The position numbers and the translations under genes were made by a program. DNA of 64,000 bases from a virus. Taxonomy: Duplodnaviria; Caudoviricetes. Below, piece by piece: positions 286-18,555 of this stretch. The stretch's first letter is position 1; every line of letters starts with the position of its first letter. Below the pieces are notes generated by a model. That model ran no database searches, was not told the DNA's origin, and saw nothing but the letters and a program-made list of their open reading frames with translations. The stretch is taken from the IMG/VR virus record IMGVR_UViG_3300013947_000022, positions 32,001 to 96,000 of that record. The stretch is one strand, 5' to 3'.

Positions 286-1080
286 ATGGAAGATAAGAAA
301 ACTTTGGGAAATGATATTCCTAAGATTGATGAAAGTTATCTTGAAGATATGAAACCTCTTCCTGAAACTATTGACGGTGTAGATATTAAATAGACACTAT
401 CTTATTATGTAAATGTCGTTACTAAGTTTATTAGGGGTAAATCTACGGTAGATGACCTTAATGAGTTAGGTAATCAAATGACGATTCGTGAATATATTCC
501 AATGAAAGAAAAGTATCGTCTTATTGCAATGACTATTTTTAAAATGAATAGCGAATCTGATGATATGGCTGAAACAACGGTAATAGCAAAAGAAAAGAAT
601 TTGTTCTTTGATGTTCTATTAACTGCTTATTGTGGCATTAACTGTGAGAATCAAGATTTGAAGACTTATGCTACTTATGACTTGCTTTATCCTATTTTGT
701 CTAAATATATTCTACAGTTCTGTGGAGATGATTATAAGAAGCTTGTTGAGATGCTTGATTCTTCTTTGAATATCTATCATATGAAAGAGCTTACTGAGCT
801 TATGGAAAGCGTTGATTACGAAGAAATCAAAAAGGCTACCAAAGCAAATGAAGAGTTGCTTAAGAAATTCTATGAAGAGAAAGAGGCTCTTGAAAAGCTT
901 AAGGAGATTCTTTTGGCTACAGATGATAATGCTCGTAAGGTTGTTGATTATGCTAAAAATGAGGCTATTGTTGAAGCTGGAAAGAAATTGACTGGCGAAA
1001 AAGAAGAAAAAGTTGTAAAACCAGTGGAGGAAGTTAAGCCAAAGAAGAAGGCTGGTAGACCTAAGAAGGTAAAAGAGTAA
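286..1080 (+). CDS. Hypothetical protein (possible tail assembly chaperone), 264 aa with TAG=Gln
   Basis: AAGGAG RBS, ATG 286, in frame with track ORF 478..1080 through one TAG at 391; ends TAA. Function guessed only from its position upstream of the tape measure gene. Confidence 0.7.
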
Positions 1081-1088
1081 ATATAATT

Positions 1089-1122
1089 TGTAAAAGCTAC
1101 TCTTAAAAGGGTAGCTTTTACA
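1089..1122 (+). terminator. Hairpin, probable intrinsic terminator
   Basis: TGTAAAAGCTACTC-ttaaaa-GGGTAGCTTTTACA inverted repeat just after a stop codon. Confidence 0.6.
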
Positions 1123-1153
1123 ACAATTTTATCATTGAAAAAAGGAGGAAAGT

Positions 1154-1876
1154 ATGAATAATAATATTAATTATGAACAGCAAATATCAAGTATAGTTTC
1201 AAACACACTTGATAAAGAAGTGGAAAAATTAAAAATCCAAATCATGAAACAAATGCCTTAGAAAATGATGATGATTAAAAATGAAATCTTTACTGATTAT
1301 TGCACAATAATTAAAAGTGTTTTTAAAAGTGTATTTGATAATGAATATGGAATTAATTATGATGAAGAGTCTATGATAGAATCTATAAATTTTTCTTATG
1401 GAATGGGACTACTTCCTCATTTTACTATAGATGAATCTAAATTTCATTTTGCTCCCAAATATATGCGATTAGCTAAATCATTTAATACGAATGAAGAAAG
1501 CGGATATACACCATATCGTTCAATGAGAAGACGTTCAGAAGAAGTTGATTTAACGGGAAAGATAAAAAATTTCTTTTCAAATGATGATGGTAATTCTGTG
1601 GATGATGAGTATGGTTGGTTTGATGGAGTAGATGATGTTGTTTCAAGTTTCGAACAGGATAATAGAACAGCAAGTGATATAGAGTATGATATGGAAAATG
1701 TATCTATTCAGGCTTATAATTTAAAAAAGAAAAACAATTAGAGCGTTTTTGAAGCAATCACTCCTGTTTCGGGGACTTATTAGACAGCCAAATTGAGGGC
1801 TGAACAAGAGTTTTTGAGAATATATAATGCATAGATTAAAGCTCGTATTTTTAAGAAATATGGGATAAAGATATAA
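1154..1876 (+). CDS. Hypothetical protein, 240 aa with TAG=Gln
   Basis: AGGAGG RBS, ATG 1154. Frame is open apart from 4 TAG codons up to TAA 1874-1876, which abuts the RBS of the next gene. Confidence 0.7.
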
Positions 1877-1886
1877 GGAGGCTAAC

Positions 1887-4800
1887 ATGGCTGATAATAA
1901 TATACTTAATAGTGTATCTTCTTGGGTTATACAAATTAAGAAAGAACTTGATGCACAAATTAAAAGTGAAATTGCTGGAATTGAAAGCAAATATGGTTTA
2001 ACATCAAGTCGTACAAAAGATAGGGCATTTAATAAACTTTAGAATTTAAATACTTATTACCAAGCTATGTTGGATAGAGGAGAGTATTTAGGTTCAGACC
2101 AAATTATGCGAGCAAAAGCTGATTTAAAATTGGCGTTGCCTTCAAATCGAAATGGGATGTCGGATTTGGGCGGAATTTATTAGAAAACCTATGATTTAAT
2201 TGAAGCTCTTGCTACAAAAACTGAAAAACAAGCGCAATATGCAACCCGATTGGAGGCGGCAGTAAAGTCTGAACAAGCTGACCAAATAGCAGAATTAAAA
2301 GATTACAGGACAAGAATTGAAAAGCGTTTGGATGTTTTGGATAATCAAATTAGTTCTGCTTTCTTTTCAGATAATAAGGTTGGAGGAGCATTGGATGATA
2401 GAGCTTATTTAAGAGAGCAAGCCGCGCTTTCTACTTTAATTGGAGAACGTTTTCCCGCAATTGTAGAAAAAGCTGTAAGAAGAGCATCTAATCCTACTCC
2501 TAAAACTTCTCAGACAAAAATGCAGACTTCTAAAGTTATTACTCCTAAAATGTACAAAGGCACAACTTCGAAGACTCGCACAAGTGTACGAGATAAGGTA
2601 AAAGTAAATGGGCAAAAAGGAGCTTATAGTAACTTTTTAACGGTAGCTGAGAATTGGCTTAAAAAACAAGGAACTAAAGCTTGGGACCTTGAAACTACAG
2701 GCTTAGATTTAGTAAGTGATAAAGGCGTAACTTTTGGTTTTGGTGATTATGGTAATCAAAAAAGTTATTTTTTAGATGCTGGTAAAAAAAGTGAAACAAT
2801 AAAAAATATTTTATCTGCAATAAATGACAAGGCTGATGAGTCTGCTAAACAGTTAAGAAAACAGTTAGGTTTTTCTACAGATACTAATAAAAAAATATCA
2901 AAAAGTGAAGTAGAATCTGTTTGGGGAGAAATTAAAAAGCAATTAATTACTCCTGTTGATGCGGCTAAAATGATGATGGAAGCCATTGATAATGGCGGTT
3001 TGGTAGGCTGGAATAGTGAAGGATATGACCTTCGTATTTTGGAGAATAATTTTTCTCAATATTTGGGAAATGTAAGTGAGGCAAAGCGAGCTGCGGCAGA
3101 AAAAGTTATTGCGGAATTTAGAATAAAATCTGCAAAACAAAGAGATGCAATGCTCAAAAGTTCTGAAACAATGGTATCTCGTTCTGATTTCGGAAATGTA
3201 AAAAAGGGTGATTCTCTTATATAGGGTGTTAGAGGAGGTAACACTCTTCAAAGAATGGCAAGGATTATTAGTGGTTCTGAAAGTTCTGGTGCTCACGAAG
3301 CTCGGTCTGACGTTAAAGATACCCTGCTGGCTTATGCAATGCAAAATGTTACAAATGTACAACAAGTAATTAGAAGCGTAATTGAAAAAGGTTTGAAAGA
3401 CCTTGAAACAAGCGGGAATGCTGTAAAAGATTCTAATGGAGAATATACGGCAGTAGCAAGAGAATTTATTACTGAGACTCTTGATAGCTTAAGTGGTATT
3501 TTTGTAGACAATCCTGATTTAGAAAAAGAATTACTTTCTAAAGGGGCTAATACTGTTTCTGCTGATGCGCAAATTGATGCCTTAAAAGCAGAAATGACAA
3601 AAGCTCAAAAAGAAGCTTTTGAAGGAAAAGAACTTCGTAGTCGTTTTGCTAAAGCAGGGAAAGATGTTTCTAATATTACTGGGGTAGGAAAAGGTCTTGG
3701 TACCCACGAAAGAAAATTAAGAGACCTTATTAGAACTGCCGCTGAAAAGGGGTATGTTACCAGTTTAAGAATAAATGGCGATAATTATGATATTCGTTTA
3801 ACTCCTATTTCTGATTATATAGATGAAAATTCTATTGACTGGGAAAATGCAGAAAATCAAATTCAATGGAATGTTTCTCTTGCAGAAAATGGACGTATCG
3901 TAAACAAGATTGATACAATTCATGCGGCTCAGGAATGGGTAGGAAAAGTTCCAACAACTATGCTTGAAACAGCATCCGCTAAACAGCTTGATGTTGCTTT
4001 GGGTATGCTCAAGTCTGATAAATTTGGCAACGGAGACAGAACAAATGATGATTATTCTCGTATTTTTGGTAGCGCTGGTAGACGTGCTATTAATGGTTCT
4101 TTACCTGTAATTGCAGGGGATGAAGACTTAAGAGAATATCTTACAACTTATCAAGGTGAAAAGACTCCTACTGAAATAATTAAGTCGATGAAAGTTTCCT
4201 TTAAGGAATACTTAATGCGGACTTTAAGAAATTCTAAGATTCAAAAGGTAATTTCAGATTATTACAAAAAGTCTAATCCATATTATCAATTTAATATTGA
4301 TGATATTGGAGCAGAAGTAATGAATACAATGTTGGACATCTTTATTAGAGGCGGTCGTTACGGAAAAGAAGCAATGTTAGCAGGAGCGAAAGAGGATTCT
4401 TTGCTAAAAATGCTTCTCGAAAGTGACGAAATGAAATATTATATTAAAGATGCATGGAATCTTATTCAATCAACTGGAATTACTAATAGCGCTTATAGTG
4501 AAGGCAGTTACAAAAATGCTCAATATGGTGCTTTGTCTCAAACAGATTTGACAGCTTGGAACTTTGTAAATGATATGACCCAACGTGATGTAGCACAGGC
4601 TTTAAATGCAAGGAGTCTTACATCAAGAGCTGCTGATGCGCGTCAAGGATTAAGTGGACCAGCATTTAGAACCAAACAAGGCACTGCTATGGGAATGGAT
4701 TATGAATCTCCTATGCAGAAGATGTTTTAGGTTATGCAAATCCCAGAGCAAGTATTTTATCAGGCGGCAAGAGCTTATTTTGAAGAGCTTGGAATGACAG

Positions 4801-7800
4801 GAGAGGATTTAGAAAATTCTATTCAGAGTTTGATGGATAGTATTATTCCTTCTCTTAAAGTTATTGAAGCTACTGAAAGCTATCAATACAGAGCGTCAAG
4901 AAATACTGATGTAAATGATATTGATGCTGGTTTCCTTGCGGCTTATGGAATTACTCCTGAGATGTTAGAAAAAGAGCAAACAATCGACCTTTCTAACTAT
5001 GAAGTAAAAGAGGGAGATTATCTTAATTTTTCTAAAAAGTTTTCTTTTAATGTGGGTGATAGACTTACAGGATTAGTAAAAACTTTAGATGGTTGGAAGC
5101 TTCAAACTGATTCTCTTTCTAAAACTCAACAGGGTACTAAGCTTACACTTGGATATGGTGGGCGTATGTCTATGGGTGGTGGAAATGACCCAGCTAAGAT
5201 GTTTGCTTATATCCAGAAATGGATTGCGAATAATTGGCAAAATTCTCCGTATTCAAAAGAAGCAATTATGTCTGCGGATGCTTTTGTTGAAGAAAGAACT
5301 TCACTAAAAGAGCGTAATGTTTTACTTGATTTTGCTGGTAGACTTTCTACTATTGTTAATGCTTTAAAAGCTGAGGGCGTCGCGCAAAACGATACAGATG
5401 TATTAAATCTTTTAAGTAAAGAAAATGGTATTTTCTCTCGTATTTTTGAAATAGATAAAAATGGTAATCTGTCTCAAAATGTAAGATATGATATGGCAAA
5501 TACTCGCTATGTTAATGGAACAACGGGAGATGTAATTTTTAATACGGCTGAAGAAGCCGAAAAACTCCTTTCTGGTTTGGATGAACTGGGAGAGGTTTTG
5601 TTAGGACAAAATTGGAGCAATTACAAAGGATTGCTTTCAACTACAATTGGACAGCAAGATGTCGCTCGTTACGCTACCAAAATAAGTGGTGGCGGAGCTT
5701 ATACTCCTTCTATTGCAGATGATTTTAAAGTTATTAATGCTGAACGTCATACCACTAAGCGTTTTGGTTCTGCGGCAATGGTTGGTATGACAGACGAAGA
5801 AAAAGAAAGAGCGCAAAAAGGCTTAAACGCTATTCTTGCGGCGAATGAAAAGCTTAATAAGGCTTTTACCCCTGCTGAATTAAAAGCTCAAAAAGATTTC
5901 CAACAATTAATTGACTCTCGTAAATCTTTAGATAAAGGTGGCTATACTTCCAACGGAAAAGATATTGAATTTGTTTCTAAGAAAGATTTTAGCGAATTAA
6001 AAGAGAATCAAATTTATATTGAAGATATTGTTACAAGTTTCCAAGATGCTGTTAAAAACGGTAAAGTTTCTCAAGATGACTATGAGAAATTTGCAATGGA
6101 AGTTGCTCGCAAGAAGAAAGACGAACTTGGAGATGCTTATAAAGATGCTAACATTGCTCTTACAAGAGCAAGAGGTAATGAACTTGGCAATGTAATGCTT
6201 GCTAATCTTCAGGGTGGACATGATAATGATTATAATTATTATGTTACTCCTCTTGAAAGACAGCAAGGAAGATTACTGCAAGCTTATGCTAAGTTTGCGA
6301 ACGCTACAGAAGAAAATGAAAAACAAAGGTTAGCGGCTTTTGAACTTGCTGAAAAAGAGTATGCAAATACTGTTCTTGAATATATAAGCAATAAAGATTC
6401 TGAAATTAAATATAAAGCCACTCATATCAGTCGTGCTCACTCTGGTTGGGCTATTGCTCAAGGTGGAGCATTTGATGAAAATGCCGCAACTTCTGAATAT
6501 AGTGCTGAAAAGGCAAGACTTGCTAATACAGTAGTTATGTCTGAGAGTCGTGTTCGTAATATGTTCAGGTCCGAATCTGGTTCATCAAAAGACCAAATTG
6601 CAGATAATTTGTTGGCTTTAATGAATCAGTTTAAATTAAGAACAGGCAAAGCATTTGATTATGGTTTTTATGACAATGATAATAATTATCATGCTTTATT
6701 TGCTAAAGATATTAAAGATGGTAATTTTACAAAAGAGCAATTAGCTGAAGCCGAAGCTCAGATAGTAGAAGATATAATCACCGCTATTAAAAAGGGTAAT
6801 AGTAACTTTAAGACTAAAATGGGTCGTTATCCTTATAACCAAGGTGGCGAGGGCATAAGCTCTCACATTGCTATTGGTGATGTTGGTGACGATGTTGTTC
6901 AAGTTAGACAAGGCTTGGCTAAATATTTGCATGGTGACTTCGATGGTGACTATTACAGAATGGTCAGTAACATCTTTGATGAACAGTATGGCAAAGATGC
7001 TTATAACATGGAACAAATTATGCAGGAGCTCTATGACAAACAAGTTTGGTTAATGAACAAATGGGCAAGCATGGAGAAATTAAGCGAAGCTCCTGATGCC
7101 GAAAGTCGTAGAGCAGATATTGCCAAAATAGCTAAAGGCTGGGTAACTAAAGACGATAATGAATTTGCTTCTTTAGTTGGTGGCTCTAACTTCCAAACCA
7201 TTGGTTCTTTCTCTCAAAGTGCAACTAAAATGCGTGAAGCAATGGAGGCTTTAAATTATACTACTGGTAATATGTCTACTGATGCTGACATGGAGAAAGA
7301 ATTTAATGCAGATGTTGTTAAATCTTTCTTACAACAGCTTGAGCAAGATGCTATTTCTTCTAAGAAAATTTATGCTCGTCTTCAAAAAGTAAGACAAGAT
7401 AGACATCAAGACGATAGTAAAGAAGCTGTAGCTTCAGATGTTGCTAAATTAATTGAAGCTCTTAGAGGCGGTGACGTTCACAGTTATATTAATTTGTCTA
7501 AAGAAATGGGTATTTGGGATGAAACAAAAGCAGACCAACCCATTCAAGCTTTAAGAGCTCGTTGGTTAAGTACAGATACTCAAAGAGATTTTCTTCGTAG
7601 GAAAATTGGTGTTGATTTTGCTGATGTTAATAACGCAAAAGCAAATCTAACTGACCAGCAAATTGAAGCTTCTTTTGGACACGTTGGACAATGGTTTAAT
7701 ACTCATGGCGGCGTTACTTTAGCTGATGCTACTACATGGAACAAAAAGATGGCTGAAGTAGCTGGTCGTGACTTTAATGGTAGAGAATATCTTAGATGGA

Positions 7801-10800
7801 AGAAATTCAATATTAGTGGGACAGAAATGGATGAAAATGGTAATCCTGTTCCTCCGTCTGGTAGTGGACTAAATGGGTCTATCAATTCCAATGGCGATAT
7901 TGTAATAAATACTTCTGGTAATGTTCTTATTAATGCTCAAGGTAATGTAGCGGTTAATACTAATGAGATTGTTGCTCAGATGGCTGATGCTGCTAAACAG
8001 GGGATTGAACAAGGTACGGCTTCAACGCTTAGAAATGATAATGGTAAAATTATCCATGAGATGCGTAATGAAAGTGGAAAATATGTTTCGCCTGAAGTAA
8101 CATGGACTGGTGTAACACCTCCTGACCCGAAGACTCATGCCATGACCGTAAAGATGAATGGTAAGCTTTATGGTAAAGATGATATTTTCTCTGTTACTGA
8201 GGCGTTGAATCATGATGCTCCGTTAAAACCGTGGGATTAGGAAAAATTGCACACGTCTTCTGTAATGGGAACTTATGCTCACAGAATTGCGTAGGAATTA
8301 GTTAATACGGGTGAGACTTCTGTTGATAGTTTTAGCGATTCTGTAAACAGCGAGCTTAGGGAAATTATAGGTAAATCTGTAAGTGAGGGTGGTCTTAACA
8401 TGACCTCTTCTGACCCTAAAGCGCAAAAACAAAGACAATTAGCTGAATTAGCTGTTGCGAAGGCTCGTGAAGCAGGTATAGTAAATGATAATACCATAAC
8501 TGAAAGAACTATGGCTGGTTTATTTGGACAGCAAATGTTTGCTGGAACAATGGACGCTTTAACTTATAATAAAGATACTGGCTTTGCAGTAAATGACTGG
8601 AAGTTTTCCAAATCTGGTGGTCCTGAAGATATTCAAAAACGTGGCGAGCGTATGTTGCAAATGCAAGTGTATTTTACAATGTATGAAAAAGCTTTGGAAA
8701 AACTTTCTAATCAAGTTTTTGAAGAGGGTAAAGAGATTACAGCCGAAGATGCAAAATGGTTTGGTTTAGAGGGAAATGATAGCTCTGAATGGGCGAACGA
8801 TTTAACTGAAAGATTAAATCATATTCGTAAGGGCAATGTTAAATTTGCTAATACGAGAGCTTTTGAACAAGATGGGCAATAGATTGTTGAAATTGTCACT
8901 TCTGGATTAAATGTGGCTATGAGCATGGAAGAAGTAGCTGAAATACTTAATAAAGGTATTAAGGGCGAAGCTATTCCTTGGGATGAGATTGCTAAAAAAT
9001 ACGGAGTAGATTCAATTAAGGCGTCTCTATTTTCTGTAAATGGTAGCAATCTTAGCAATGAAGTTCCTCCTGTTATTCAGAAAATGATGGATAAAAAAAA
9101 TGCGGAGAGAACTTCTGGTGGTTATAACACAAAATCCATAAATGATTATCTTAAACAGTATAAACAAATTCTAAAAATTCAAGAACAAATTGATGCTGAC
9201 GAAAAGCGTCTTGCGAGTTCTGGAATGAAAGGCGAACGTGCAGATAACATTCGAAGTGTTGTCAATATGCGTAAACGTTTGCTTGGTCAACTGCAAGCTG
9301 AAGTGCCTAATTTAGATTTAGAAAATGGCACTCTTAATGGGCAAAAACTTTCTGAAGAAGAGTTGATTAAATTAAAGAAAGAAATTGCTTTGCTTGATTC
9401 TAATCACGGTATTCAACTTGAAAAGAATAATTCTTTACAAAAACAAAGTGTTGGATTAGTCCAGCAAATTGCTCAGGGCTTTAAAGCTTCTTTCCGTAAC
9501 TTAACAGATTATTCAATGGCTTATATGGTCATTGGTAAGATTAGAATGGCTTTTAGTCAGTTGATTAATTATGCTGAACAACTTAATGCTTCTATGGTTG
9601 ATTTGCAAATTGCAAGTGGATTAAGCTACAGCAATATTAAAAATATGATGCTTGACTTTAATGACCTTGCTGTTAAAGTAGGTAAGAGTACGCTTGAAGT
9701 ATCTCAAGCCGCAAACGATTGGCTAAGAGCGGGTTATGAAGGACAAGATGCCGCAACTCTCGTTGAAAATTCAATGCAACTTAGTACGCTTGGTATGATA
9801 AACTCTGCCGAAGCAACGGAATATTTGATTAGTATGCTCAAGGGCTGGAAGCTTCAAGTTAATGAAGTTAGTTCAGTAGTAGACAAACTCGTAGCTGTTG
9901 ACATGAGTGCTGCGATTTCGGCTGGCGATTTAGCAACAGCGTTGGCAAGAGCTAACACAAGTGCGCAATTAGCAGGTAAAATTTGTGCCTGAGTATATGG
10001 TAACATATACTATAGTATCAACCTAAATCGGTTAAAACCTCTTTTTAGAGACAAGACCGAGATAACTTTTATTAAATAAAATCTAAGTTTTATTATATAT
10101 TTTAATATAAAATTGCAACAAAAGGAGGGAGTTTTGTTGCTTATAAATGAAAAAATGACAATAATTCCAACCAGTAGAAATAAAAAATGGTATTTAGAGA
10201 AGGGATACCCAGAAGTTCCTTATCTATCACCTTTAGAAATAAATTCAAAGGATATAAGCCTTCACAGTAAAGCTTTGATACATTGGAAATGCGACTATTG
10301 TGGAGAAGTTCAAGAAAGTAAGGCTTTTATTTATTTTACACAGGAAAGAGATATTGTAAATAAAGATTGTTGTGTAAAATGTGCTCCATTGAAAGCATAG
10401 GAAGTTTATGAGGCTAAAACTGGATATAAGAATAGTTTTAGTCAACCTCGGTATCATGATATGCTAAAAGAGAAAATGAAAGAAAAATATGGAACAGAAT
10501 ATTATCTTAATAGTGAAGATTGTAAACAAAAAACAGAAGAGTATTTACAAGCACATAACGCAACAAATGTAATGCACATTCCAGAAGTAAAAGAATCTTT
10601 ACGAAAAACTGTGCAAGAAAAATATGGGGTGAACTGCTGTTTTTAGAATGAAGATATTAAGGCTAAAATTAGAGAAACCAATTTAGAAAAATATGGCTTT
10701 CCAAACGCAAATCAAAATCCAGAGATTAAAGAAAAGAATTTAATTAACAGAAATAAAGCCATAGAAAAAACTCGGAATGTTTTAACGAGTAAAGAGCAAG

Positions 10801-13800
10801 TTCGACTTTGTAAATTGTTTAATTGCTCAGTTAATAAGCTAATGACATATTATTTTTTGGATGGGTATTTTGAAAAGGAACAAATTTATTTTGAATATAA
10901 TGGAAGTGGTCATGATTTATCGGTTCAAATAGGAGCTATTACTGAAAAGGCTTTTAAAGCAAAAGAAGCTCGTCGTTATCATTATCTAAAGACACTTGGA
11001 TTAAAAGAATTTTGTGTTATTAATACCAAGAGAAACAAAGTTCCAGTAAATGACGAGATAATGATGAAGATTAAGCAGTTTTCTTTTAATGAGTTAGAAA
11101 AGGATACTATTAACTGGGTAATAGTAGATTTTGATAAAAAAATATTAAAAACAAAATTCCAAGAGTGGACTTTGGAAGAATTAGATTTTATTTAATAAAA
11201 GTATTGTAACGACCAGAATCAGGTTGGCTCCTCTTATCACTCTAAGAGGATGAAGGTATGGTCTGAACTATATGGTGACATATAGAAAAGAGGTCAAGTG
11301 TAAAGACACTTTAAAGAAGAACCTCTTTCGCCACAATTTATTATTGTGGTCAGTAATTCCTTTTAATGGAATGAAAGTAACAGAGTGTCAAGTTTAGACA
11401 ATTATATTGCGTATACAACTGTTGTTGCTGAAACTACTCAAAAGAGCGCTGAATCGGTGGGCGAGTCCTTTAAAACGTTATATGCACGTTTTGGTAAAAT
11501 AGCGGCGGGTAAATTTGAAACTTCTCAAGAAGAACTTGAACAACAAGGATTATCTTCTGAAGATATGTCAAATTTAAATGAAATCGAATAGGTATTAAAA
11601 GCTGTAGGAATTGAATTGAGAGATACTCCTGAGCATTTTAGAGACATAGATTCGGTTTTGGCTGAAATTGCTGGAAAATGGAATACTTTCTCTGATGTTC
11701 AAAAATCTGGTATTTCTACGGCTGTTGCTGGTACTCGTTAGAGAGAAAATTTCTTAGTTTTGATGGAAAACTGGGACAATGTTGGTAAATATGCTGAGAT
11801 AGCGGCCAATGCTTATGGTACAGCGGTAGAAAAGATGGAAGCTTATTCACAAGGTGTAGAAGCAGCTCGCAAGCGTGTACAAGCGGCGTGGGAAGGCTTT
11901 GCATTAATTGTTAATGAAAGTGGATTACTTGAGACAGCATTTAATGGCCTTGCAACTGCTATTGAAAATATTCACTGGATTATTTTGGCTGCTATAACTT
12001 CATTGGTAGCAAACAACCCCGCTGGCGCTGCCGCAACTCTTTCGCAAGCATTTACAAAACTTAGTTTAACATTAGGCTCTGCTGGATTGGAGCAAAAGCT
12101 TGGCTTAGTAGGAGATTCTTAGGCTACTATTGAAGCGGCAAAGCAAGCTCGTATTGATATGGCTGATGCAGCGTTTATTAGACAGAAGTAGATGCTTTGG
12201 GGAGATTATTTAGGTAAATTTAAAGGTGGCATGAATGATGAGCGCTTTACTGGATTTACTGAATATCAAAGTGGATTAATTGGATTAGATAAAACAGACG
12301 AAAATGAAAAGTTTGTTGCTGGATTATCAGGTTTTGTTTCTGCATTGCAAGCTGGAGAAAAGGGCACAACATTGGCTACAGAATCTTTAGAATATTTAAG
12401 AAAAAATATTGACGAGGGTAAAGCTCAAATTTTGTTAAATACTGTTTCCAAAGAAACTGCGAATACCTTAGTTCTTTCTTAGAAAAAGACTATTGAGCAA
12501 GGAATGACAGAAGAACAACTTGCTGACCAAACTACAATTTTAGCTGAAGCTCGTAAGAGGGCGGCAATGCAGTTGCTTGATGATATGGGCGCTGAGAAGA
12601 GTCAATATTACAGCGAGAGTGACAAGAAAGTATTTACTACTGCAACAGGTAGTGCTCAAAAGTCAAGAAGCCAATCCCGTCAAAAATTAGCCGTAAGTGC
12701 TATGGGAAGTCTTTTTGGAAGTATTGCTGGTGGGTATGGCGGAAGTAAAGGTCTTGGCAGCATTTTTGCAAAAGTTGGGGGAGAAGAAGCTCGTAGTGCT
12801 GGTGAAAGTATTGGTTCAATTATTGGTATGGTAGCGGGACAGAAAGCTGTTACTACTTTAATTTCAACTTGGGGAACTAAATTAACAGGAAGCGCCGCTT
12901 TAACAGGTATTGTAGCACCTTGGGCGGCTGTTATTGCTTTAGTAGCTGGAGCTGGTTACGGTATTTATCAGCATTTTAAAAAGAAAGCTATACAAAAAGC
13001 CCAAGAAGAATTTAAAGAGCTTAAAGACACTTATGAATCTCAACTTTCGGCTTCCACAAAAACAACTCGTTATGATGAATTGTCAGAGGGAGTAGACCAG
13101 TTTGGACGTAATGTTTCCTTGACGGATGAAGAATATAGTGAATTCTTGTCTACTTCTAATGAACTTGCGGAGTTGTTCCCTGAATTAGTAGTTAGGACAG
13201 ACGAGGCTGGCAACTCTTTCTTGGGCACTGCTGGTAAAGTTGGCAAACTTACTGAAGCTGTTGACGAGATGGTTAAGGCTTCTCAAAAGGCGGCAGATGT
13301 TCAATTACTATCTGATAATGTTTTTGGCGAAGCTTTTAAAGATGCTAAAGCGTCCTATAAAAAGAACTCTTCTGGCATAGAACAACTTTAGGAGGAAGTG
13401 GCAAAGGGAGGATATTGGTCTAATACCTTTAAACTTGGATAGGCAGGTCCTTCTCAAACCTTTACTGCTTATAGTAAAAAAGAGCTTGAAGAGAAGAAGT
13501 CCGAAATAAAATCTATGGAAGAAGCGTCTCGAAATGCGCTGTCTTCTCTCACCGACTACAACAACGCAATTATGCGTGAAGATTTCGGTCTACAGGCAAC
13601 TTTGTCTTCTATGTCCGAGGATTCTGCAATTTTGGCAAAACAGACAATGCAAAAAGTATTCTCTTCTCTTGATTTAACTGAGTATGCTAATGAAGATGAG
13701 TATCGTGCTGATATTGAAAAAATATCAAACCAGATTGCAGATGCTTACAAGGAGAATCCTATTTTAGCTACTCTTGAGGTTGAAATGGGAAGCTCTGCAA

Positions 13801-16800
13801 CTTCAGGTGAGTATTATGAAGCGCGTCAATAGATTCTTGAAAATCTTATTCAGGCTTTTGGTGGATATGCTGACTTGGACGACGATGAAAAGAAGATTCT
13901 TATTAAGCTTGGTTTTGAGATGGATGATGATGGTAATTGGTTTGATGCAACAGATATTCGCAAAAAGATTGAAGACGAGGGGCTTGGTGCGAAATTAAAT
14001 AATGTTAATCTTGATGCGTTTTCAAAAGATGATTTGGAAAGAGTTTATAAGATTCTTAACGGCTCTACTTTTGGAACAACCTTTAATACAGAACAACTTC
14101 AACAAGCGGTATTTGCAGATAAATATTCCGATGCGGGGCTTTCCAAGCTCGTTTCTCTTTATAAGAATTATGCTGATGAGGAAGATTTAACTCCCATCGA
14201 GCAAAAGAATAAAGAGTTTATTGAGGGTAAACTTGATGGTTGGGCTAAAGAACTTGGTGTTGTTAAAAACGATTATAAAGATATTAGTGATTATTATGAT
14301 GCGATAATCCATAAAGCTAAAATTTATGGCGATATTGATAGTGCTGGAATGTCTCAGGAAACCCCAGAAGAAGTTAAAGACCGTATGGACAAGTACGCTA
14401 AATATTATAAATTTATTCGAGATGAGTATTCTAAAACAGGAAAGTGGGATTTAGATACTTACAATGAAATGATTAAAGATAAAGATTTGCAAGGATATTT
14501 AGCAAACAATGATGTGAACGGTTTAAGTAAATTCTTAGAGGAGACCTTAAAAGACGCTCCTAATATTTATAAAAATGCCTATCAAGCAATTCTTTGGGAA
14601 AATGAAGACATTAACAAAGAAATGCAAGAAAAACACAAAGAAACCTACGAAGAATTTGAAGAAGATTATGGGTTTGACTTAACTAATTTTACCACTTTGA
14701 CGGCTGCAAAAGACGCGATTAATTCTTATACAAATGGTTTAATGACCAGTAATTACGAACAGTGGAAAAATGCGTTGGCTTCAATCTATCAAGAAGATTT
14801 GGCTCAATTTACTTCTGCGGCTATGCAAAAAGCGGCAATGAATAATCTAATAATGGATTCGTTGGAAATGTCTGATTCTGATAAGCGTATCTTTTTGAAC
14901 CAAACTTCTGCTGAGTGGAAAGCCGCAGGCGGCGAAGAAGGAACTGGCTTAACTTTGTCGGATTATAGAAATCAAGCGCTATTTAAGAAAGACCAAGAAG
15001 TAAAGACTGCGGCTTTTAAAGATGGTTTACAAGGATATGCTAATGCAATAGGAGAAGCGTTGCAAACTGTTGCCAATCTTATTCCACGGGGAGATGTTAA
15101 TTATGACACTCTTGATGATGGTACGTCTCAATTAGGTAAAGAAATAGAGCGTATTGAAGCTCTAATTGGTATGTACCAGAAAGAATATTATCTCCGTAAA
15201 TCTTTAATTGAGCAAGGTAATCTTACTGCTGAAGGACAAGATTCCTTCATGGGTCCTGAGTATTATGACCGTATGCGTAGTGCTTATGAAATGCAAGCGA
15301 ATTATTATAAACAACGTATTCCTTGGGATAAAGATATAAGCCAATGGTCTGCTGAACAAATGGGTTATTATCAGAAGTATCAGCAAGCAATGATAAATCT
15401 GAACAACCTCGATGATGAACAGGTGGAAGATAAAATCAACATTTTATAGCTTCAGGATGTCTCCTATGACCAGCTTATCGCGGCTCAGGAAGAGTTAATT
15501 AAAACTTCTGATACCTTGGAAGAACAGATTACTCGTGAGAATGAGCTTAATAATCTTATTAAACAACGCTATGAGCTTTATAGAGATATTGCAAGTTGGC
15601 AGAGAGAAATGTTGGATATTGCTCTCGAATATGAGAGTGGAAGTCCTGATACTGCCTTGTATGCTGACCTTGTTGGTCAAAAGAAACAGAATCTTGAAAA
15701 TGAGATGGAAGCTGTTAAGCAAAGAATGGCTGAAATCCAAGATTCTGACCGCAAGGATAAGCAAGAAGAGCTTAGGAATCTTGCCAAACAGTATGCAGAA
15801 CTTTATAAAGAATATGCTACTGTTGATATTGATGTTCTTAATGATAAACTCGATGTTCTTGAAAGAAGACTGGATTTGCTTGAAAAGAGCAAACCTCAAG
15901 AGTGGGCAAAATATGATGATATTGCACCTTATTATCAGCAGAATATCGGTTATCTTGAGCAAAAAGCCTCTTTAATTAGAGAGCAGCTTGAAGATGTTTC
16001 AATGCTTACTGATGAGCAAGTTCAAGATTTGGTAGACCAACTTAATGATGTGACTGTAGCTTTGCATGAAGCTCAAATGCAATTACTGGAAGACCAAAAG
16101 AATTATAAGGAAAGTCAATATGACGCTTTGGTGTCTAAGGTTCAGGAATATATTACTGAGCTTGAAGATGCTATGGATGAGATTGAAAAAGCTTATGAAG
16201 ATGAACTTAAGCCTTTGGAGCAAATTAACGAGGAATTAGAAAGACAGGCAAAACTCGAAGATTTGCTTGCTGCGAAGAAACGTGCGGCGTAGGAGAAGGA
16301 GAGAGTATATCGCGAGGGAATCGGATGGGTGAAATGTTTGCCCAAAATGGACTATATCGGTTAAAAACCAGAGATGGTTAAGACCGAAGTAAGACTTTTA
16401 TTTGTTTGAAAATAAAAAAGAAAGGAGGAGAAAATGGATTATCATTTAATTACTGATGAAGAAATTGCAGAAAAAGCTAAAAAATTAAATGTGGAAATTA
16501 TTAGGCGTTTTAGTCGAAATGGACATAGTTATGTTGAAACACATTGTTTAACTCATCCTAATAAACCCAATATAGAAGTAGAATTATATAATTTTTTAAA
16601 TCGAAATACTACTTGTGGTTGTCTGTTACAAAGGTACACAATAGAAGATTTAAAAAATAATCCTAAAGTGAGACAAGATTTAGAAATTATTGGAGAATAC
16701 AAAAATAATTCTACGCCAATAGAATGTTAGTGTAAAGTATGTAACTATAAATGGTTTGTTAGTCCTAACAAATTGACATAGGGTAGAGGATGTCCATTAT

Positions 16801-18555
16801 GCCATTCTAAGAAAATGTCTTCAGGAGAAAGATATATTAGTAAGATATTATAGGAAAACAAAATAGATTTTATATCTCAAAAAATATTTCCTGATTTAAA
16901 AGGGGGAAACAAAACTCGTTTACGTTTTGATTTTTTCTTACCTGATTTTAATTTATGTATTGAATTTTAGGGAATTTAGCATTATTAGCCTACAGTTTTT
17001 AGAATAAATAGAAAAAATAAAACGAAAGAAGAACTTTAGGAAGAAGCAAAGAAAAAATTCGAAAGAAGTTAGATAAATGACAAGAAAAAAGAAATATATT
17101 GTCAAGAAAAGGGTATAAATTTATTGGTTGTTCCTTATTATCAAAAAGAAGACATTGAACAAATAATTTTAAATAAAATCAATCAAATAAAAGAAACTCT
17201 AACGACTGCGGGATGTTAATGGTAACATTAACATTGAAGTCCATTCTATTGAAAAATAGTAATATACAGTCTGAACTCACACTATAATCTAAAGATGAAA
17301 TGTGAGAAGCAGGATGAAAGTCCTGCTCGCCTTTATTAATATTTTAATAAAGGTCATAAAAGCAACAGAATGATACGAATCCCCTCGTTCTAAACAACGC
17401 GAGGCACAAAAAGACCTTGATACATTCAATCGCCAAGACCGCATTGACGACCTTACAGGCACGAAAGATGCAGAAAAAGAAGCTCTTCAAGAGAGAATAG
17501 ATAATCTTAATCTATACCTTAAAGCGCTTGAGTGGAGCTGGAATGAAGCTGAACGCATAGAGCGTGATAGACTTCTTGCCGAAATGATGAACATTGACGA
17601 ATCTCTCTCTAACGAAGAGATTCAAAAAGAGATGCGTCAACGTATCATGGATGATATGCAAAACTTTATTGAAGTCCAAAATAATGATTATCAGAATTAT
17701 CTTGGTATCTTCTCTAATTTCATTAATTCTTATACGCAATTAGTTCTTCAACTTGCAGAGCTTCAACGTCAAGCGCTTTCATTGATTGATTCCAGTCAAT
17801 ATTTAGGCTCGAATGCTGGTGGTTCATTCTCCATCACTGGTGCAACAGGTGGTGGCGGTTTTGGTAATGCACTTGACCGACTTGATAGTGGAGTGGATTA
17901 TTCTCGTGATTTCCAAGCTGAGATTAATGCCGCTCTTAAAGACCCACGGAATTATGGTCCTGATGGACAATTAAGTGCCAACGGCAGGGCTCATTTAGCG
18001 AAACTTGAAAAGTATCGCAACGAGAAAATCGACTTGGGGCTTGGTGGCAATTATGAAAAGACTTATAACTACACTTCAACACGAGACGGAAGCTCTTCTG
18101 GTGGCGGGGGCAATAAGACTTCTTCCAATAGTCCTTATAACTCCAAAACAGATTATAATAACGAGTCTAAATACCTTGATAATCTTATCAAAAATGGCTC
18201 TGCTGGTCAAAAAGCTTGGGCTCAAAATTAGAAGAAGGAACTCGACAAGGCTCAAAAAGGATATGCCGATGGTATTGAAAATGGTCCTGTCACCTACACA
18301 GGTTTATCAATGCTTCATGGTACACCTTCTGAGCCTGAATACGTTCTCAATTCTGACCAAGCATATAATCTCCTGCGCAATTTGGCAACGACCAGAATGC
18401 CTGAGTACACTTCTACTTTGACTCAAGACATGGGTGTTTCCTATGTTATTCAAGGTGATGTGGTGCTTGAGAATTGTGACGACCCAGCACAATTCTGGAA
18501 TCAAGTAATGGCAGCAACACATAATCGTTACAACGTGACGAAGAATAAGCGTTAA
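1887..18555 (+). CDS. Giant multidomain tape-measure protein (~4,738 aa; exons 1887-9977, 11388-16330, 17373-18555) with N-terminal DEDDh exonuclease, RNA-polymerase-like and RecB-like nuclease regions
   Basis: GGAGG RBS and ATG 1887. The track fragments (2250, 3255, 4734, 8400, 8913 | 11385, 11760, 12192, 12504, 13515, 13875, 15516 | 17584, 18310) share a frame within each exon and are separated only by TAG (~18 counted) or by two group I introns. Tape-measure motifs: AANDWLRAGY, VVDKLVAVD, SAESVGESFKTLYAR, AGTR(TAG)RENF, GIGWVYE, YADG...MLHG...EPEYVLN. Confidence 0.88.
2670..3330 (+). other. DEDDh 3'-5' exonuclease domain within the giant tape-measure protein
   Basis: ExoI WDLETTGLD (D 2685, E 2691), ExoII LVGWNSEGYD (D 3027), ExoIII GAHEAxSDV (H 3294, D 3309). 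The domain spans an in-frame TAG at 3222. Confidence 0.75.
5100..7000 (+). other. Two-barrel (DPBB) RNA polymerase-like catalytic region within the giant tape-measure protein
   Basis: GRYP (R at 6825) is followed 37 codons later by LHGDFDGDY (DFDGD 6936-6950), resembling the beta' RxP...NADFDGD arrangement. Upstream GTKLTLGYGGR (K 5139, R 5163) has the K/+8 basic spacing of the beta GDKxxxRHGNK motif. Confidence 0.65.
8180..8700 (+). other. PD-(D/E)xK RecB/Cas4-like nuclease domain within the giant tape-measure protein
   Basis: FSVTE, GTYAH (8268-8282), ITE, GTMD (D 8553), NDWK (8595-8603), QMQVY (8658-8672): RecB-family motif order. Confidence 0.7.
9978..11387 (+). mobile_element. Group I intron 1 of the tape-measure gene, with endonuclease ORF
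   Basis: 5' exon ends CAGGT, which pairs with intron GCCTG (P1 with U.G at the splice site). Core-like AACGACC/TGGTCTGAAC elements; ends ...AACAGAGTG. Splicing gives SAQLAG|SSLDNYIAY in frame. Confidence 0.85.
10137..11195 (+). CDS. Intron-encoded homing endonuclease (Zn ribbon, EKYG repeats, C-terminal Vsr/DUF559-like nuclease)
   Basis: AGGAGG RBS and TTG start. Track ORFs 10113, 10461 and 10815 join through TAG at 10398 and 10644. Motifs CDYC/CVKC, KEKYG/QEKYG/LEKYG, YFLDG...FEYNGSGHD. Confidence 0.7.
16331..17372 (+). mobile_element. Group I intron 2 of the tape-measure gene, with endonuclease ORF
   Basis: Exon TGGGT pairs with intron GCCCA (P1, U.G). AACGACTG/CAGTCTGAAC core; ends ...AACAGAATG like intron 1. 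Splicing restores REGIGW-V-YESP and the downstream frame. Confidence 0.88.
16434..17219 (+). CDS. Intron-encoded homing endonuclease (Zn fingers plus Vsr/DUF2726-like nuclease), 261 aa, 8 TAG codons
   Basis: AGGAGG RBS. With TAG=Gln it reads ...CKVCNYKW...QGRGCPLC...SSGE...LRFDFFLPDFNLCIEFQGIQHYQP...; ends TAA. Confidence 0.8.

Follow-up and report, generated by a model that had tools for sequence, protein, structure and literature searches.

A tape-measure gene split by two introns in a TAG-recoded gut phage carries a probable polymerase core and a RecB-like nuclease

The DNA analysed here, termed the window, comprises 64,000 nucleotides and corresponds to bases 32001–96000 of the 215,374-bp tailed-phage record IMGVR_UViG_3300013947_000022 in IMG/VR, the completeness of which is estimated at 99%; a window coordinate is the genome coordinate minus 32000. 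Near its left end, on the plus strand like all parts of the gene and the intron-borne open reading frames (ORFs) described below, lies what is very probably exon 1 of a giant tape-measure gene (1887..9977; 2,697 codons), split by two endonuclease-bearing introns. Ahead of the tape-measure domain, the encoded protein appears to contain a catalytic barrel of the RNA polymerase β′ type, a candidate second barrel, a RecB-like nuclease and, in the lineage studied, the motifs of a 3′–5′ exonuclease.

Under translation table 11 the interval 1887–9992 splits into ORFs of 324, 491, 1168, 160 and 359 residues. With TAG read as glutamine it forms a single ORF of 2,701 residues with seven in-frame TAG codons (Q52, Q99, Q446, Q948, Q2118, Q2136 and Q2332). 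Three lines of comparison support decoding of TAG as glutamine by this phage: in-frame TAGs across the whole genome are concentrated in the structural-gene regions (about 1.5–60 kb and 200–211 kb), with none across about 95–200 kb; TAG948 and TAG2332 of the giant gene lie opposite CAA-encoded glutamine in a 51%-identical relative; and the residue most often aligned with the 17 TAGs of that relative itself is glutamine. An earlier note, made from the letters of the window alone, had described the protein as invisible to standard-code gene calling, which is accurate in that table 11 fragments the ORF but too strong in that public collections contain 2,689–2,703-residue calls of close relatives. 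Elsewhere in the genome, at 111750–112043 and thus beyond the window, a candidate tRNA adjoins a tRNA-Ile in a tRNA cluster; its anticodon is CUA, and 219 nt are inserted after position 37. It was called only under relaxed ARAGORN settings, in a run with many doubtful calls, and is possibly a TAG suppressor that itself needs splicing.

The same earlier note had placed some 2,500 residues ahead of a tape-measure domain in one frame, and the Pfam family PF10145 (PhageMin_Tail) indeed begins at residue 2593 of the 2,701-residue frame. What the frame holds is the first half of that domain only (residues 2593–2697; 9663..9977; profile positions 2–111 of 201, E-value 1.7e-10, above the cut-off; phrog_14441). 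The frame stops five codons after codon 2697, inside intervening sequence 1 (9978..11387), and the frame downstream, of 1,659 residues, opens with profile positions 114–201. This second exon (11388..16330; phrog_4211, E-value 1.5e-30) continues with a glycine-rich hydrophobic segment and a long helical ruler, and contains ten TAG codons. It is followed by intervening sequence 2 (16331..17372) and by exon 3 (17373..18555), which encodes the last 394 residues of the protein and includes the stop codon. The two introns were not part of the earlier entry on this gene. Removal of both would give a mature product of 2,697 + 1,647 + 1 + 393 = 4,738 residues, and, provided that the introns are spliced, a single polypeptide contains both the polymerase core and the tape-measure domain. 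The start of the gene is conserved across homologues, as MAD, MED or MAI. The features of a TP901-type tape-measure protein are all present (the PF10145 core, a long helical ruler, a hydrophobic glycine-rich segment and a location in a tail gene block), and a tail protein gene (phrog_1887) lies downstream.

Both splice junctions are confirmed by relatives that are uninterrupted at the corresponding positions. At junction 1 the window reads ...NTSAQLAG-SSLDNYIAY..., and a homologue whose own intron lies 22 codons upstream reads through as ...NSAQMAG-TTLDRYIGY...; at junction 2, ...GIGW-V-YESPR... here corresponds to ...GIGW-T-YETPR... within a single 2,055-residue ORF of a 51%-identical relative. 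As had been proposed, the enzyme region is part of one gene with the tape-measure domain. Two simpler gene models were ruled out: the 2,701-residue frame as a complete gene, since it breaks off halfway through the Pfam domain, the remainder of which lies downstream, and exon 3 as a separate gene, since the relative has one unbroken ORF over junction 2.

The intervening sequences are group-I-like. In the first, P1 can form between CAGGU at the end of the exon and a GCCUG that lies ten bases inside the intron, with a U.G at the 5′ splice site, and the intron has a terminal G at 11387; the second has a P1 of the same geometry (UGGGU/GCCCA) and has the elements ATCGGTTAAAA, GTCTGAACT and AACAGA(A/G)TG in common with the first. 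The group I reading comes from these P1 pairings, the terminal G and the common core elements; an Rfam search of 9940–11420, covering intron 1, returned no family even at an E-value of 1, RF00028 (group I) included, and intron 2 likewise goes unrecognised by Rfam. Intron 1 contains a homing-endonuclease ORF (10113–11195; phrog_12131, E-value 3e-30; DUF7487) and intron 2 an HNH-type endonuclease ORF (16434–17219; phrog_559, E-value 1e-43). One metagenome contig has intron 1 without its endonuclease ORF, 10081–11155 being replaced by 39 letters, which suggests that the ORF is an optional insert; the evidence for this is one contig, with a side of 30 letters. Among the metagenome contigs compared, none showed an allele lacking intron 1. 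The tape-measure core domain, of ~140 residues, is an intron hot spot (window 9663–9977 and the homologues P0002, P0003, P0005, P0009, P0015 and P0017), with homologues ending at at least five different positions within it (after LDA, AAN, VDKLT, DMAAA and AQLAG), and the intron position differs between the phage studied and a relative 91% identical to it. Farther along the window, 28067–28412 matches the Rfam group I intron family RF00028 (60.6 bits, E-value 6.7e-13).

The best supported part of the putative polymerase is a β′-like module (residues ~1433–1882; 6183..7532), which includes a double-psi β-barrel, here DPBB-A, and a downstream invariant helix. The barrel signature R1647-Y-P...G-D1684-F-D1686-G-D1688 lies at nt 6825–6950, and the helix, EQDAISSKK...R, at nt 7341–7379, 130 residues past DFDGD. 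When a family profile (residues 980–1900) was compared with all PDB sequences, the top match was vaccinia rpo147, the largest RNA polymerase subunit (E-value 0.0034), in an alignment that covers the catalytic loop (GRQPSLH...NADFDGD against GRYPstsG...ngDfDGD). By hhalign, the catalytic segment falls on residues 730–786 of gp96, the polymerase-bearing tape-measure protein of the Thermus phage P23-45, including 779-DFDGD-783 (E-value 0.026), and on residues 442–469 of E. coli β′, with DFDGD on 460–464 (E-value 0.029). From the R-x-P arginine to the first aspartate there are 37 residues in this protein, against 35 in E. coli β′ and 38 in gp96.

Structure prediction points in the same direction. 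An AlphaFold2 model of residues 980–1900 had a predicted local distance difference test score (pLDDT) of 58.7, with 80–88 in the barrel region, and a predicted template modelling score (pTM) of 0.45; in a Foldseek search of the PDB with this model, all of the best 50 matches were β′ or phage β′-like chains, led by the non-virion polymerase of AR9 (E-value 7.5e-3, probability 0.99) and then that of phiKZ. Matches in BFVD included phage RNA polymerase subunits and ‘minor tail’ giants, and VIA alignments to β′ extend past the barrel, reaching β′ residues ~930–1250. In the region where a bridge helix and trigger loop may lie, the observations are this VIA continuation and the invariant EQDAISSKK..R helix. 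No zinc-binding or other β′ landmarks were identified in the giant protein, and searches of the polymerase region against Pfam and NCBIfam gave no match, and Pfam RNA_pol_Rpb1_2 detected neither this protein nor anything else in the whole genome. The fold scores are individually weak and carry weight because they agree with the sequence evidence; together they make the presence of a conserved β′-type catalytic barrel with DFDGD highly probable.

Conservation bears on whether the motifs arose by chance. In an exhaustive HMMER search, in which residues 950–2117 were compared with 1.84 billion cluster representatives, only 12 proteins matched, four of them 2,473–2,946 residues long, and a 90%-identity collection added relatives at 97%, 91% and, in two cases, 51%. 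Every locus examined is on a TAG-recoded gut-metagenome contig, and the order of genes does not vary: β-CASP, ClpP, RecU-like, tyrosine recombinase, two small ORFs, the giant gene, an endonuclease ORF and the rest of the tape-measure gene. In IMG/VR, synteny and architecture are conserved at 17 loci on contigs of 26–217 kb, and likewise on gut metagenome contigs. When eight homologues with identities as low as 20% were aligned, ~95 of about 2,700 columns were invariant, and a conserved core ran from about residue 571 to 2340. Since the motif residues are among these columns (the exonuclease set excepted), they are very unlikely to have arisen by chance: K1085, R1093, R1647, P1649, G1653, D1684, D1686, G1687 and D1688 are invariant, as are E1819, Q1820, S1824, K1826, K1827 and R1831, and, in the nuclease region, H2132, E2206, D2223, D2237, K2239, Q2258 and Y2262. 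Conservation of DFDGD in homologues, on which the earlier note had staked its reading in advance, was thus found in all eight, at 20–30% identity. The family-wide core begins at residues ~571–1029 (3597..4973), with invariant G591...G936 and F1016–G1021 and no Pfam or NCBIfam match, and this stretch is a candidate N-terminal domain of the polymerase. A tblastn search with residues 1000–2000 and 1625–1840 against 50,697 phage genomes gave zero matches even at an E-value of 10, and phmmer of the whole protein against the PDB returned chance hits only.

A second, β-like barrel (DPBB-B) is a candidate at residues ~1030–1100 (4974..5186), where the sequence runs VGDxLxGLxKT...G-x-K1085-x7-R1093. 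The two basic residues, at nt 5139–5165, have the spacing of K1065 and K1073 in E. coli β; G1057, D1058, T1066 and G1069 are invariant together with them, and six strands are predicted here in both AlphaFold2 models, the second of which covers residues 995–1335 (pLDDT 61.2, pTM 0.37). Supported by this motif and the predicted strands, the second barrel is a candidate, and a complete two-barrel polymerase is, in our estimation, likely. Two DPBB domains had been predicted to emerge from AlphaFold and Foldseek: the β′-type barrel did so, and the β-like fold was not confirmed.

Beyond the polymerase core lies a nuclease domain of the PD-(D/E)xK superfamily, RecB/Cas4-like (residues ~2117–2323; 8235..8855), with the motifs GTYAH2132, D2223, D2237-W-K2239 and Q2258-x3-Y2262 at nt 8268–8672 and E2206 in addition. 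It matches PF12705 (PDDEXK_1) at 32.1 bits against a cut-off of 22 (E-value 1.4e-7), and the homologous part of P0002, a 30%-identical member, does so at 29.9 bits, again above the cut-off. The best PDB match of the nuclease family profile, over motifs II, III and QxxxY, was 4ic1_A (E-value 0.22), which we take to be the Sulfolobus Cas4 protein SSO0001, the entry title reading only ‘uncharacterized protein’. The motif order (H, D, (D/E)xK, QxxxY) is that of RecB/AddB/Cas4-type nucleases; unlike in these, the domain is embedded in a tape-measure protein and a Cas4-type cysteine cluster is not evident. Given the profile match above threshold and the invariant catalytic residues, the RecB-like nuclease that had been proposed is almost certainly present and conserved. 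Between polymerase core and nuclease, window 7860–7980 (residues ~1990–2030) encodes a short Asn/Gly-rich repeat, NGSINSNGDIVINTSGNVLINAQGNVAVNTNEI, which may be a small β-solenoid linker; a similar stretch occurs in P0002.

Nearer the N-terminus, the motifs of a DEDDh-like 3′–5′ exonuclease extend over 2685..3311, following a variable region (residues 1–258; 1887..2660) that is charged, probably helical, poorly aligned among homologues and free of family matches. ExoI (D267-x-E269 in WDLETTG), ExoII (D381 in GWNSEGYD) and ExoIII (H470-x4-D475 in GAHEARSD) are all present in the correct order, ExoII having one extra residue between N and D compared with E. coli DnaQ. Profile evidence is sub-threshold: PF13482 (RNase_H_2) is reached in three members at E-values of 0.002–0.01 over ExoI only, PF01612 scores an E-value of 0.12, and hhalign against DnaQ gives an E-value of 0.012 with only ExoII correctly aligned; PDB searches with the region found nothing relevant. 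The ExoIII segment has a homologous counterpart at the N-terminal end of P0003 (E-value 4e-4), and the set is confined to the sequence studied and two close relatives, apart from one distant homologue in which it lies, shuffled in position, at the extreme N-terminus. By this distribution the exonuclease, the identity of which is supported at the level of motifs, appears to be a mobile, lineage-specific accessory. The earlier note had placed all four motif sets exactly, and the exonuclease it called complete has its motifs in order; sub-threshold profile hits and absence from most homologues qualify that description. Its three-enzyme architecture is seen, by motifs, in a sub-lineage; because the exonuclease is missing from most homologues, the family-wide architecture is a polymerase core, a RecB-like nuclease and a ruler. 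Searches for stand-alone relatives of the exonuclease and nuclease domains returned only fragments of the same giant gene.

A precedent for a polymerase fused to a tape-measure protein, to which the earlier note had pointed, is real. In 2024, Chaban et al. reported that the N-terminal ~1,050–1,200 residues of the 5,002-residue P23-45 gp96 are an active, clamp-less two-barrel RNA polymerase, which is found in virions and transcribes pre-early genes (PMC10770324). The fusion was reported only in the close relatives P74-26, G20c and TSP4, with no nuclease mentioned (PMC10770324), and a literature search found no other paper describing tape-measure–polymerase fusions. The protein here resembles gp96 in being a giant tape-measure protein with a single-chain polymerase core ahead of the ruler, and in having a DFDGD metal loop at similar spacing after R-x-P, the two loops being aligned by hhalign. 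It differs in that the catalytic aspartate triad starts at residue 1684 (779 in gp96), in that its proposed two barrels lie ~550 residues apart, and in the fused RecB-like nuclease, to which an exonuclease is added in the lineage studied; gp96 was absent among the fold matches listed, and the DPBB-B region was not aligned to it. Unlike P23-45, the phage has a mesophilic, gut-associated host, reads TAG as Gln and splits the gene by two introns.

Other single-chain two-barrel enzymes, namely gp66 of a crAss-like phage, phi14:2, which is part of a large virion protein and is ejected (PMC10770324), YonO of SPbeta and QDE-1 of Neurospora, have a β-like barrel followed by a β′-like barrel with a DxDGD loop, as is proposed here. 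None of the three is fused to a tape-measure protein, and no description of fused nucleases was found for them in the literature searched; the whole core gave no significant hhalign alignment with YonO. The best profile and fold matches come from multisubunit β′ chains, including vaccinia rpo147 and the AR9 and phiKZ non-virion polymerases, with which R-x-P...(N/G)-(A/G)-D-(F/Y)-D-G-D is in common, and from which the protein here differs in being a single chain. As judged by sequence, the giant protein would represent a second, independent family of tape-measure-fused polymerases, and what is new with respect to P23-45 is the added nucleases, the long inter-barrel connector and the setting in recoded gut phages with intron-split structural genes.

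Tape-measure proteins sit in the tail tube and exit at infection. The reading that we favour, with a probability of about 0.6, is that 1887–9977 is exon 1 of a tape-measure protein that carries an injected two-barrel polymerase and a RecB/Cas4-like nuclease; for the part of it that assigns the enzyme the function of an injected RNA polymerase, the odds are slightly better than even. In such a scheme, the β-like part with K1085 and R1093 would come first in a single-chain core of the cellular two-barrel type, the β′-like catalytic barrel would follow ~550 residues later, and Mg2+ would be bound through D1684, D1686 and D1688. Given where tape-measure proteins sit and that they exit, the enzyme module would most likely reach the cell envelope or cytoplasm together with the leading DNA end, as shown for P23-45 gp96. 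There the polymerase would make RNA on the entering genome, yielding a few pre-early transcripts, pulling in the DNA, or both, while the nuclease might act on DNA ends or on host DNA.

Several observations weigh against this interpretation. Both AlphaFold2 models are of low confidence and the fold-search scores are all weak; at the K...R segment of the candidate second barrel pLDDT is ~30, searches with the second model, in the PDB by Foldseek and VIA-align and in the ESM Atlas, gave helical-hairpin or unrelated matches only, and hhalign produced no significant alignment of the DPBB-B region with gp96, E. coli β or YonO. The connector between the barrels, at ~550 residues, is far longer than that of gp96, to which there is no detectable sequence relation beyond the ~55 columns at an E-value of 0.026. 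Splicing is read from sequence comparison, and location in the virion and activity are putative; among the sequencing runs listed as containing the stretch, none was an RNA run. Finally, the genome carries 31 host-type promoters, and the host polymerase can therefore start the programme without an injected enzyme.

These promoters were found on the plus strand of the whole genome as matches to TTGAC(A/T)-N13-16-TGnTAnA(A/C/T)T, with 0.75 expected in shuffles and three on the minus strand. They lie mostly at 84–183 kb and for the most part in the TAG-free portion of the genome, and nine of the 31 have the extended form CACTTGACA...TGnTATAAT. Matches of the σA type (TTGACA-N17-TGnTATAAT), often preceded by an A-rich tract, include those at genome positions 91411 (window 59411), 106701, 119789, 121911, 133655, 152689, 173802 and 175297. 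The abundance of near-consensus σA-type promoters with an extended −10 element indicates that the host polymerase serves a large part of the genome, and, together with the low G+C, points to a Bacillota-like host. The role of an injected polymerase could then be limited to a few pre-early transcripts at the entering end, to DNA pulling, or to priming synthesis, and the promoters keep open a DNA-directed role for the whole module. A whole-genome search revealed no Pfam-detectable RNA polymerase, no paralogue of the core and no other long ORF with a comparable DxDGD loop; the T7-like RNA_pol family also gave no match across the genome, a blank that is uninformative, as its control was likewise without a match anywhere. 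A search of the whole genome with Phage_sheath_1 detected no sheath gene, and the tail is probably non-contractile.

An alternative that we consider unlikely is that the two-barrel core is real without being a promoter-dependent transcriptase, forming together with the exonuclease and the RecB-like nuclease an injected DNA-processing machine. It might serve as a primase, as a polymerase of the replicative type, as a complex that repairs the entering genome or processes its ends, or as a motor that pulls in DNA. Early transcription does not need the enzyme, host-type promoters being abundant; on either side of the polymerase lies a nuclease of the DNA type, one belonging to the proofreading family; two-barrel enzymes include a DNA polymerase, the archaeal PolD (PMC10770324); and, unlike in P23-45, there is no second phage RNA polymerase to succeed a virion enzyme. 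The closest sequence and fold matches are, however, RNA polymerase β′ chains and not PolD, the exonuclease is missing in most family members and so is not integral to the task of the polymerase, and the sole characterised tape-measure fusion makes RNA (PMC10770324).

A further alternative concerns where the module acts. It might work mainly as a free, non-virion protein, made from the unspliced message as the 2,701-residue product or released by cleavage of a precursor, the ruler fusion then being incidental or one gene giving two forms. All homologues examined have an intron inside the tape-measure core domain, such that an unspliced message always ends just past the enzyme module; all relatives have a gene for a ClpP-type protease upstream; and the separate non-virion polymerase that P23-45 possesses was not found here. 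Against this, the intron sites, of which there are at least five, each fall in the most conserved stretch of the domain, as expected of homing-endonuclease targets, and a regulatory role is not needed to explain them; the fusion of enzyme module and ruler is retained in relatives at 20% identity; and the 2,701-residue product would bear a useless half-domain. We regard this alternative as quite improbable. That the motifs are relics or chance, and the region a non-catalytic structural spacer in the tail, gains something from the low-confidence models, the weak E-values throughout and the lack of a match to any Pfam RNA polymerase family, and is nonetheless highly improbable, given that all catalytic residues of the β′-type loop and the nuclease are invariant despite divergence to 20% identity and that independent methods converge on β′.

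If the module is indeed an injected polymerase, a tape-measure-fused enzyme of this kind, so far demonstrated by experiment for just one small group of Thermus phages, would recur in an unrelated sequence family of gut phages of 120–217 kb, suggesting a strategy that is widespread or was invented more than once, and offering a mesophilic system for its study. The conserved fusion of a RecB/Cas4-like nuclease is not in the published picture, and raises the question of what a nuclease does at the tip of an entering genome. More speculatively, and in our judgement improbably, the ruler may deliver a self-contained ‘first-contact’ enzyme complex that acts at the entry point, or incomplete splicing may yield both a free and a virion-bound polymerase. 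In the former case the polymerase and the nuclease, joined in the lineage studied by the proofreading-type exonuclease, would work jointly on nucleic acid, perhaps destroying host DNA or defence nucleic acids as they copy the phage genome or pull it in; either would be a mode of starting an infection not described for any phage. More generally, TAG recoding and introns in structural genes can hide a protein of 4,738 residues from ordinary annotation.

Immediately upstream of the giant gene, at window 286–1876, are two small ORFs of 264 and 240 residues, with one and four TAGs, respectively. The pair is kept in relatives (261/214 and 264/239 residues) and is without family match; tail assembly chaperones usually occupy the position that these two ORFs hold here.

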